Of a stretch of DNA of 64,000 nucleotides, positions 60,828-62,781 are shown one piece after another. How positions within the stretch are numbered: position 1 is the stretch's first letter; each line of letters begins with the position of its first letter. The position numbers and the translations under genes are program-made. Source of the stretch: Escherichia phage Bf23; sequence record OR083247.1; one strand, written 5' to 3'. The notes under the pieces were generated by a model. That model made no database searches. It had not been told where the DNA came from and saw only the letters and a program-made list of their open reading frames with translations.

Positions 60828-61799
60828 ATGACCAATGTAAAAGAATTTATTAAACGCTGTCAAGAAGCATATTATCAAGGTATGTCTTTAATCTCTGATG
60901 AGGAGTATGATTGCCTAGTAAAACGCTTCCCGTTAGAGGAAGAGATCGGGCCTAAGGGTGATATTCCACATCTGTATCGTATGTATTCTTTACAGAAAGT
61001 TTACTATAACCGTGGAGATAAACCACCATTCAATCCTTTAGGTCAGGTGGAAACCGATAAGTTAGATGGTTGTGCAATTTCTCTGCTATATATTAATGGC
61101 GAATTTGTTCAAGCACTAACTCGTGGTAATGGTATTCTGGGGAATGATGTCACAAGCAACATAAGATTGCTGAACATCCCTAAAAAGATTTCCCAAAAAG
61201 TACCTACTCAAATCACTGGTGAAGTTCTAATTACAAAAGAAGTAGAAAATAAACGTAACTTTGCCTCTGGTGCTATTAACCTCAAAGATAGCGATGATTT
61301 CGTACAACGTATCGGGGAAGGTGGTTTAATCTTTGTTGCTTATGGTATCCAATGTTCTGCTGAATCTGTGGGTATTACAGAAGCATATTTAAAAGATATG
61401 CTTTGGCTAGAGAATGAGAACTTCTTAACAGTTGTTAATGTGCGTTCCTTCTTTAAATGGATTCCGACGGACGGTAAAGTTGTTCGTATTAATGACAACA
61501 ACAAATTCTTCCGTGAAGGCTGGACTAATAAATTCCCTCGTGGAGCATTCGCCATTAAAGAGGATGAAGAAGGCGAGATTACAACTCTTACTAAGGTTGA
61601 ATGGCAGGTAGGGGCTTCTGGTAAAGTAACTCCAGTTGGTTATTTCGAACCGGTAATTATTGATGATGCTACAATTGTTAAAGCGACTCTTAATAACGTT
61701 GATTATATTAACTCTCTCGATCTAGAGATCGGTTGCCAGATTCGAGTGATTCGTGCTGGTGGTGTAATCCCGTGCATAGTAGAGCGAGTATACGATTAA
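60828..61799 (+). CDS. ligA: NAD-dependent DNA ligase, N-terminal subunit (adenylation + OB domains)
   Basis: 323-aa ORF; nucleotidyltransferase 'KLDG' motif in 'ETDKLDGCAISL'; ends where a LigA OB fold would end. Confidence 0.7.
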   Translation: MTNVKEFIKRCQEAYYQGMSLISDEEYDCLVKRFPLEEEIGPKGDIPHLYRMYSLQKVYYNRGDKPPFNPLGQVETDKLDGCAISLLYINGEFVQALTRGNGILGNDVTSNIRLLNIPKKISQKVPTQITGEVLITKEVENKRNFASGAINLKDSDDFVQRIGEGGLIFVAYGIQCSAESVGITEAYLKDMLWLENENFLTVVNVRSFFKWIPTDGKVVRINDNNKFFREGWTNKFPRGAFAIKEDEEGEITTLTKVEWQVGASGKVTPVGYFEPVIIDDATIVKATLNNVDYINSLDLEIGCQIRVIRAGGVIPCIVERVYD

Positions 61800-61850
61800 T
61801 ACATAATCCTTTGCTACCCATCTACCATATCGGAATTATAAAGTGGTTAT

Positions 61851-61879
61851 TGACATTTTCGCCGCTTAGGTATATACTA
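61851..61879 (+). promoter_or_regulatory. sigma-70-like promoter TTGACA-17-TATACT between the ligase halves
   Basis: hexamers read directly; followed by 8-codon ORF MARVSKVS at 61908-61934. Confidence 0.45.
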
Positions 61880-61942
61880 TTATCATTCAGTTGAGGGATA
61901 GAAAGTTATGGCGAGGGTAAGCAAAGTTAGTTAAAATTGTAG

Positions 61943-61971
61943 TTGCTAAATGCTTAAATACTTGCTATAAT
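61943..61971 (+). promoter_or_regulatory. T5-type early promoter (TTGCTA-17-TATAAT)
   Basis: conserved cassette. Confidence 0.55.
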
Positions 61972-61998
61972 ATTTATATAAATTGATAAGGAAGAAAT

Positions 61999-62781
61999 TT
62001 GATGAAAATCGAAATTCCAACACAATGTCCCTCTTGTGGTTCTAAGCTAGATCTTGTCAACGGACAATTATTTTGTCGTAATAAGTCCAACTGTCCAGCG
62101 CAATCAAGTAAGTTAATTGAGAACTTCTGTACAAAAATGAAGTTAAAGGGTTTTGGCCCGAAAACTATTGAGAAGCTGGAGCTGACGAAGATTTCAGAAC
62201 TATTTTACCTAACCGAAGAAGATTTGGTTAGAGCCGTGGGTAGCAAGGTTGCCGCTAAGTTAATTAGCGAATTAAATACTAAAGTTCGCGGAGACATTGA
62301 CTTTGGTTCAGTTCTCGGTTCTTTAGGAATCTCTCTAATTGGAGAGGTTGCAGCAAAGAAATTATCCCAAAATTGCACTAGCTTCCACGATGTGAAGGCT
62401 GACGGCAAGGCTGGAGAAAACTATAAAGCCTGGCTAAATTCCCCACAAGGCAAGGATGTTATCGAATTACCGTGGAAATTCACAACTGGTATTAAAGGTG
62501 CTAAAGCTGACATCATCATTACTGATGGTCTAGTAGCCCAACCAAACGGAATAACGGTATGTATTACCGGATCTTTGCAAGATTTTGCAAATAGAACGGA
62601 TGCAACAAACTATTTAGAAGGTCTAGGATATACGGTTAAGAAATCCGTTACCAAAGACGTCAAATACCTAATCTGTGAGGATGAATCGAAGCGTTCTTCC
62701 TCATCTTATAAGAAAGCCGAAACGAATGGGATAGAAATCCTGTCGATTAAAGAACTATTGGAGAAAAATAATAATGTCTAA
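61999..62781 (+). CDS. ligB: NAD-dependent DNA ligase, C-terminal subunit (zinc finger, HhH, BRCT-like)
   Basis: 260-aa ORF; 'CPSCGSKL...CRNKSNCPAQ' zinc finger followed by HhH-like and BRCT-like segments. Confidence 0.65.
   Translation: MMKIEIPTQCPSCGSKLDLVNGQLFCRNKSNCPAQSSKLIENFCTKMKLKGFGPKTIEKLELTKISELFYLTEEDLVRAVGSKVAAKLISELNTKVRGDIDFGSVLGSLGISLIGEVAAKKLSQNCTSFHDVKADGKAGENYKAWLNSPQGKDVIELPWKFTTGIKGAKADIIITDGLVAQPNGITVCITGSLQDFANRTDATNYLEGLGYTVKKSVTKDVKYLICEDESKRSSSSYKKAETNGIEILSIKELLEKNNNV

Follow-up and report, generated by a model that had tools for sequence, protein, structure and literature searches.

The window analysed here, a 64,000-nucleotide (nt) stretch of Escherichia phage Bf23 (record OR083247.1), carries a nicotinamide adenine dinucleotide (NAD+)-dependent DNA ligase specified by two genes, ligA and ligB, which are followed by the gene for the DNA-binding protein D5. 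We found that ligA, ligB and D5 very probably make up one early transcription unit from which the ligase is produced as two polypeptides, that the spacer between the ligase genes is a conserved tandem-promoter module, and that an eight-codon open reading frame (ORF) lying within this spacer, MARVSKVS, is probably incidental. A first-pass annotation of this DNA had described the ligase as split by a spacer of about 200 bp, and the spacer does measure 202 nt to the ATG of ligB, or 199 nt to an alternative TTG. Positions throughout are those of the window, and the features of the locus are collected in Table 1.

The ~2.2-kb ligase region is 98% identical in nucleotide sequence to that of phage T5, and the phage is, on sequence grounds, a T5-like Tequintavirus. 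The same region matches 455 phage records, 430 of which have the same layout at a query coverage of at least 80%. T5 ligA and ligB are the same genes in the same order, with the same breakpoint and spacer length (LigA 99% and LigB 97–98% identical in amino acid sequence), and the two loci differ by point differences only. Both subunits, as well as the spacer promoters, are annotated in three T5 GenBank records, and both subunits are listed in a 2013 paper on T5 (PMC3632103). The two-gene NAD-dependent ligase of T5-like phages is already known: mention of it goes back to the T5 genome papers of 2004–2005, the annotations of hundreds of phage genomes include it, and the locus described here is a correct re-identification of it. 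The first-pass annotation had called such a split unusual outside T5-like phages; a LigA-type split is indeed present, but the window is itself T5-like, so that this is a known case and not an unusual one. There is little discovery value in the locus, as the promoters in its spacer belong to the classic T5 early ones and the PDB already has an orthologue's two-chain structure, and the useful outcome is a negative one, in that the case can be closed as a known feature correctly found again. In the literature searched we found no biochemical study of the T5 ligase and no publication behind PDB entries 9hu3/9i5i, and ligase data were not found in the main text of the T5 CRISPRi-ART and DRT4 papers.

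The two halves were matched to the domains of the ligase family. LigA matches the Pfam adenylation domain DNA_ligase_aden (PF01653; 83 bits against a cut-off of 27), and its residues 252–321 match DNA_ligase_OB (PF03120; 78 bits, cut-off 32.9) and align to residues 284–390 of Escherichia coli LigA. The end of the ORF and these matches agree with the earlier placement of the end of an adenylation/OB half at 61799. Residues 78–318 align with residues 115–388 of E. coli K-12 LigA at 33% identity, with K78 of the KLDG motif opposite the catalytic K115; the KxDG motif I lysine of the NAD+-dependent ligase family and the OB fold that comes after it are both present. In the other half, LigB residues 2–253 align with E. 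coli LigA 401–666 (E 1e-15, 26% identity). Here the features of the family are a Cys4 finger, with C9, C12, C25 and C31 at the zinc-finger positions, an HhH region that is weak in Pfam (HHH_2, 20.7 bits, below the cut-off of 27) and a C-terminal BRCT domain (PF00533; 35 bits, cut-off 21.3). The domains of this half had been named correctly, but its start had been put at 61999. The ATG at 62002 is the likelier start because it is the one used in T5 record AY543070, because AAGGAAG precedes it by 7 nt, and because the orthologous chain in the PDB begins with MKI.

Alignment of both halves to E. coli LigA confirmed the predicted domain boundary and the homology of each half. The break falls in the short stretch that joins the OB fold to the zinc finger, where LigA ends opposite residue ~393 and LigB begins opposite residue ~400; this leaves ~6 linker residues unaccounted for and essentially no part of the enzyme missing. 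E. coli LigA (PDB 2OWO), the bacterial NAD+-dependent enzyme, has the domain order (Ia-NTase-OB-Zn-HhH-BRCT), the KxDG lysine and the Cys4 finger in common with the phage ligase. It differs in being a single polypeptide of 671 residues, whereas the phage enzyme comprises 323 + 259 residues, and phage LigA has ~37 residues fewer before the catalytic lysine and a glutamine in place of H23.

Two ORFs could arise from what is really a single gene through a frameshift introduced in sequencing or assembly, or if the gene had recently become a pseudogene, a general possibility that the first-pass annotation had raised and for which we found no other support. The three frames of 61797–62004 hold 7, 5 and 6 stop codons (18 in all, the ligA stop included), and therefore no single frameshift fuses ligA and ligB. 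Moreover, 200 nt intervene where ~6 linker residues are to be accounted for, the same layout recurs in the 430 phage records and in the eight lineages sampled below, both halves are under purifying selection, and a solved structure has two chains. With stops in all frames and a layout conserved across the sampled lineages, we rejected the frameshift, which has next to no chance of being the explanation.

We give equally little credence to the idea that the halves are rejoined after expression by a split intein, an intron or a trans-splicing element in the spacer. It is common for inteins, introns and homing endonucleases to break up phage replication genes, and one relative has a GIY-YIG ORF in this very gap. 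Against rejoining, the end of LigA at ~393 and the start of LigB at ~400 of E. coli LigA leave no room for intein halves, no Rfam match, to an intron or anything else, was obtained in 60600–63700 at E ≤ 1, the spacer is occupied by two promoters, and the orthologue in the PDB was deposited as separate chains of 339 and 248 residues. The lack of extra residues at the junction and of an Rfam match in that interval led us to discard a split intein or intron.

The deposited structure points indirectly to an enzyme of two chains. In PDB 9hu3/9i5i, chain A (339 residues, ‘DNA ligase (NAD+)’) matches LigA with E 3e-103 and chain B (248 residues, ‘DNA ligase subunit B’) matches LigB with E 1e-78, and chain B is 100% identical to LigB of the Providencia phages vB_PreS_PR1 and PSTCR5, which are relatives of T5. 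Their ligase, an orthologue from within this phage family, is likewise split at the same place, and its 192-nt spacer has the same tandem promoters, although its amino acid identity to the ligase of the window is ~54% and the spacer sequence differs outside the promoter cores. In the archaeal LigA-type ligase LigN, a fragment made up of Ia, NTase and OB adenylates itself but does not ligate without ZnF-HhH-BRCT. From the behaviour of this fragment and the two-chain deposition of the orthologous pair, we infer that LigA self-adenylates from NAD+ and requires LigB for DNA binding and sealing. LigA, with domain Ia, the NTase domain bearing K78 and the OB fold, would thus carry out the chemistry of self-adenylation, LigB, with its Cys4 zinc finger, HhH and BRCT domains, would form the DNA-clamping part, and the two would presumably associate non-covalently to seal nicks.

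A ligase interrupted in a different way was seen in the jumbo Serratia phage 2050HW (locus L045, 2106–4090), where the annotation divides an NAD-dependent ligase into three successive parts of 65, 59 and 535 residues. The break there lies near the N-terminus, unlike the T5 split, and the pieces could reflect frameshifts or an annotation artefact.

The spacer between the two halves reads as a pair of T5 early-type sigma-70 promoters, at the positions annotated in T5. The near-consensus TTGACA-17-TATACT promoter and the T5-type early promoter that had been predicted in the spacer are both present, as P-K28b and P-K28a, respectively. Going by their promoter names in GenBank, we take both to have been functionally mapped. 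The class of T5 early promoters, P-N25 and P-N26 among them, is reportedly the subject of work by the Bujard laboratory (for example Gentz and Bujard 1985, cited in the reference list of PMC7472727). P-K28a shares the box TATAATATT with T5 early promoters as typified in PMC7472727, in which ‘ATATT’ in the discriminator region is given as typical, whereas P-K28b has TATACTATT in place of TATAATATT. The -10/downstream sequence of P-K28b occurs once in the window. The box TGnTATAATATTTATATAAATTGAT is found there in six copies with at most three mismatches (none expected by chance), and P-K28a, judged by this box, belongs to a generic T5 early-promoter cassette. Five of the copies lie on the minus strand, within the first half of the window, and one on the plus strand, which suggests divergent early transcription units.

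The split and the promoters were compared across relatives, drawn from loci of a phage collection and 34 IMG/VR contigs and falling into eight lineages: Tequintavirus, Sugarlandvirus, Novosibvirus (Proteus phage 1), Thalassavirus, Shenzhenvirus, the Providencia phages PR1/PSTCR5, Vibrio phage D239 and the IMG/VR locus L036, of which the first five only have an assigned genus (Demerecviridae). All eight share the position at which the ligase is split. The order ligA-spacer-ligB-D5 is also found in Klebsiella phage KpGranit, Proteus phage 1, Vibrio phage Thalassa and Aeromonas phage TS3, and in Vibrio phage D239 the gene after ligB is unnamed. Among 33 closely related loci, made up of IMG/VR loci (28/29), the three T5 GenBank records and the window, the spacer is exactly 202 nt in 31. 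Elsewhere the gap between ligA and ligB is 199 nt in KpGranit, 192 in the Providencia phages, 182 in TS3, 338 or 795 in Proteus-type phages, 443 in D239 and 1360 in Thalassa.

When the ~180 nt preceding ligB were aligned across the eight lineages, the cores of both promoters proved to be invariant, ~93 nt apart and always directly before ligB, with TTGAC(A/G)-17-TATA(A/C)T followed by TTGC..-17 with TGnTATA(A/C)T. Longer gaps owe their length in every case to DNA located after the ligA stop and before the first promoter. In one Tequintavirus contig this DNA contains a GIY-YIG ORF, a Proteus-type contig has a NADAR-domain ORF (110 bits) there, and Thalassa has three ORFs, one of them with a weak DprA-like match. 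The stretch from the ligA stop to the first promoter thus behaves, across these sequences, as an insertion hot spot. We had also considered ~270 bp of extra DNA in Escherichia phage SP15 and some other close relatives as a spacer insert and rejected it, since this DNA is an ORF of 90 residues upstream of ligA. Such a hypothetical ORF of ~90 residues, ending right at the ligA start, is seen in SP15 (L043, 428–700) and KpGranit (L004, 2226–2501) and is absent from the window and T5.

The spacer of the window differs from the commonest Tequintavirus spacer at one base, 61807, and from the other Tequintavirus spacers at 0–11 bases. Across 28 distinct Tequintavirus haplotypes, nucleotide diversity is 0.004 in the promoter module (61832–62001, 170 nt), 0.026 in the first 300 nt of ligB and 0.070 in ligA. 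The module has the lowest diversity and the spacer is therefore the most constrained stretch of the locus. When the promoter-associated span is taken as about -60 to +20 relative to each estimated start, the two promoters would cover nearly all of the 170 nt. In ligA, diversity is 0.159 at codon position 3 and 0.026 at positions 1+2; both ligase halves are under purifying selection, diversity at positions 1+2 being far below that at position 3.

How the two halves are transcribed depends on what lies between and around them. A simple pattern scan found no terminator-like site between ligA and ligB, and the convincing ones only flank the ligA-ligB-D5 block. The ATG of D5 overlaps the ligB stop, and D5 and ligB therefore belong to one transcription unit. 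With no terminator between the halves and with the ligB/D5 overlap, the spacer promoters would add to read-through, and the halves would not be independent. Most likely, transcripts of ligB start at the ligA promoter as well as at P-K28b/P-K28a; ligA would be transcribed from its own promoter only, while ligB and D5, translationally coupled, would be served by read-through from the ligA promoter together with P-K28b and P-K28a. The first-pass annotation had the two halves separately transcribed: ligB does have extra promoters of its own, but with read-through likely, separate transcription is not supported.

The same annotation had seen ‘regulated stoichiometry’ in this arrangement, that is, P-K28b and P-K28a would exist specifically to set the ratio of LigA to LigB. 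Three promoters serve ligB and one serves ligA, and the promoter pair stays with ligB across the sampled lineages despite the genes inserted after ligA, as this idea would have it. However, the same promoters drive D5 through its translational coupling to ligB, a heteromeric enzyme has no obvious need of a surplus subunit, the P-K28a-type box is generic, with its six copies in the window, and the arrangement is explained equally well by a need for D5 and for the replication genes downstream. We consider a dedicated role in the subunit ratio doubtful, and D5 may benefit from the additional promoters no less than the LigA:LigB ratio does.

The first-pass annotation had further pointed to MARVSKVS as a mini-ORF with a ribosome-binding site. 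The sequence and a Shine-Dalgarno (SD)-like GAGGGA are present, ~45–70 nt upstream of the estimated P-K28a start in the case of the ORF, but its status as a gene did not stand up to comparison. A functional leader peptide or upstream ORF at this place would, by being translated, control ligB and D5 expression from the P-K28b transcript. The GAGGGA 9 nt before the ATG would fit such a role, as would the ATG and stop codon retained in all 14 distinct Tequintavirus spacers, an SD-like motif at that position in all eight lineages, and the geometry of a predicted hairpin between the AUG and the P-K28a -10 region, which could in principle couple translation to folding. Retention within the genus is not peculiar to the start and stop, though, as nearly all other bases are kept too: conservation is just as high across the entire 170-nt module, which is explained almost completely by the two promoters, counting the sequence upstream of each and the part transcribed first. 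The three variant sites of the mini-ORF within Tequintavirus (K6Q, S8N and S8I) are all non-synonymous. Of the seven lineages compared outside the genus, six lack the ATG, which is TTG in KpGranit and absent in Thalassa, D239, TS3 and L036. In the seventh, Providencia phage PR1 (L038) has an unrelated nine-codon ATG ORF, MADKPDGNE, at this place, and its close relative PSTCR5 (L039) has ACG. Where tiny ORFs exist, then, their length and peptide sequence are unrelated, and the mini-ORF is not called a gene in any of three independent T5 annotations. We rejected it as a conserved gene, as its ATG is not kept outside Tequintavirus and its variants are non-synonymous; regulation by a leader peptide is highly improbable, and the eight-codon ORF is probably incidental.

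Some observations weigh against our account of an early unit with a two-polypeptide ligase and a spacer given over to promoters. Domain Ia of LigA is short, and of the five nicotinamide mononucleotide (NMN)-contacting residues of E. coli LigA four are matched: in a global alignment, which scores low over this shorter domain, Y16, D24, Y27 and D28 stand opposite E. coli Y22, D32, Y35 and D36, and Q17 stands opposite H23. Mutagenesis in the Shuman laboratory reportedly established that E. coli Y22, H23, D32, Y35 and D36 confer NAD+ specificity. Because of the short domain and the incomplete match, the use of NAD+ by LigA is something that we infer. In addition, the absence of a terminator between the halves comes from a simple pattern scan, and rho-dependent termination or RNA processing may take place in the spacer. 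Lastly, the leader RNA of P-K28b (61886–62010) has an unusually good predicted fold (-26.1 kcal/mol, z = -3.6 against shuffled controls), in which the AUG of the mini-ORF (61908–61910) pairs with 61966–61968, within the transcribed P-K28a -10 region, and which could provide extra regulation.

This fold bears on whether the P-K28b leader is a functional cis-element, such as a ribosome-binding stabiliser of the 5′ end of the mRNA or a means of translational control of ligB-D5. An SD-like 4-mer, complementary to the anti-SD, occurs at about +9 to +17 of the transcript of the first promoter in all eight lineages, against a background of 0.32 per 27 nt, the lineages not being independent of one another, and no conserved ORF lies behind this motif. 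Such an orphan motif, together with the stable hairpin in Tequintavirus, is why we entertained the idea, along with the related one that ancestral insertion of the promoter module made the ligase split and left the insertion hot spot. The homologous leaders of the seven other lineages, however, have no significant fold (z -0.2 to -1.9), no compensatory changes were seen at paired positions within the genus, and the Rfam search described above had no match. A conserved RNA structure in the leader is unproven, being significant in the T5-like sequence only and with its changes uncompensated, and we regard the cis-element and the related insertion scenario as unlikely. For those who work on T5 transcription, the conserved tandem promoters, the hot spot after ligA, the orphan SD-like motif and the low-diversity spacer may be modest leads, and they are not new biology by themselves.

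Table 1. Features of the ligase locus in the window and corresponding features in relatives. Handles beginning with L denote compared loci.
Feature	Position	Strand	Remarks
Terminator-like hairpin and T-run	60723..60751	+	Closes the upstream unit, just before the ligA promoter; putative rho-independent terminator at the matching place in T5 AY587007
ligA promoter	60768..60796	+	TTGCTT-17-TATAAT, then ATTTATATAAATT (T5 early-promoter box, ‘repeat b’); T5P35, ‘repeat b copy 4’ in T5 records
ligA, ligase subunit A	60828..61799	+	323 aa; short domain Ia, adenylation domain (KLDG, K78), OB fold
Early promoter P-K28b	61850..61878	+	TTGACA-17-TATACT; 11/12 matches; T5 ‘promoter P-K 28b’ / T5P36
SD-like GAGGGA	61893..61898	+	~10 nt into the P-K28b transcript; 9 nt before the mini-ORF ATG
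Eight-codon ORF MARVSKVS*	61908..61934	+	ATG GCG AGG GTA AGC AAA GTT AGT TAA; probably not a gene
Early promoter P-K28a	61943..61971	+	TTGCTA-17-TGcTATAAT, then ATTTATATAAATTGAT; 10/12 matches and TG extension; T5 ‘promoter P-K 28a’ / T5P37, ‘repeat b copy 5’
ligB, alternative TTG start	61999	+	260 aa
ligB, ligase subunit B	62002(ATG)..62781	+	259 aa; Cys4 zinc finger, HhH, BRCT
D5 (DNA-binding protein)	62774..63541	+	8-nt overlap of its ATG with the ligB stop; T5 annotation
Strong terminator-like hairpin (13 pairs, 8 G-C) and T-run	63559..63587	+	Ends the ligA-ligB-D5 unit
TGnTATAATATTTATATAAATTGAT box copies	18466, 25987, 28060, 30620, 35055	-	
TGnTATAATATTTATATAAATTGAT box copy	61962	+	
Equivalents of the SD-like motif	L004-L008, L036, L038		
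Gap inserts after ligA	L034 1707-2500; L040 1700-2494; L007 3470-4829		
T5 names of ligA/ligB			T5.116/T5.117 (AY543070); T5p114/T5p115 (AY692264); dnlj1/dnlj2 (AY587007)

Away from the ligase locus, the window carries a cluster of 20 tRNA genes on the minus strand at 27296–34574.

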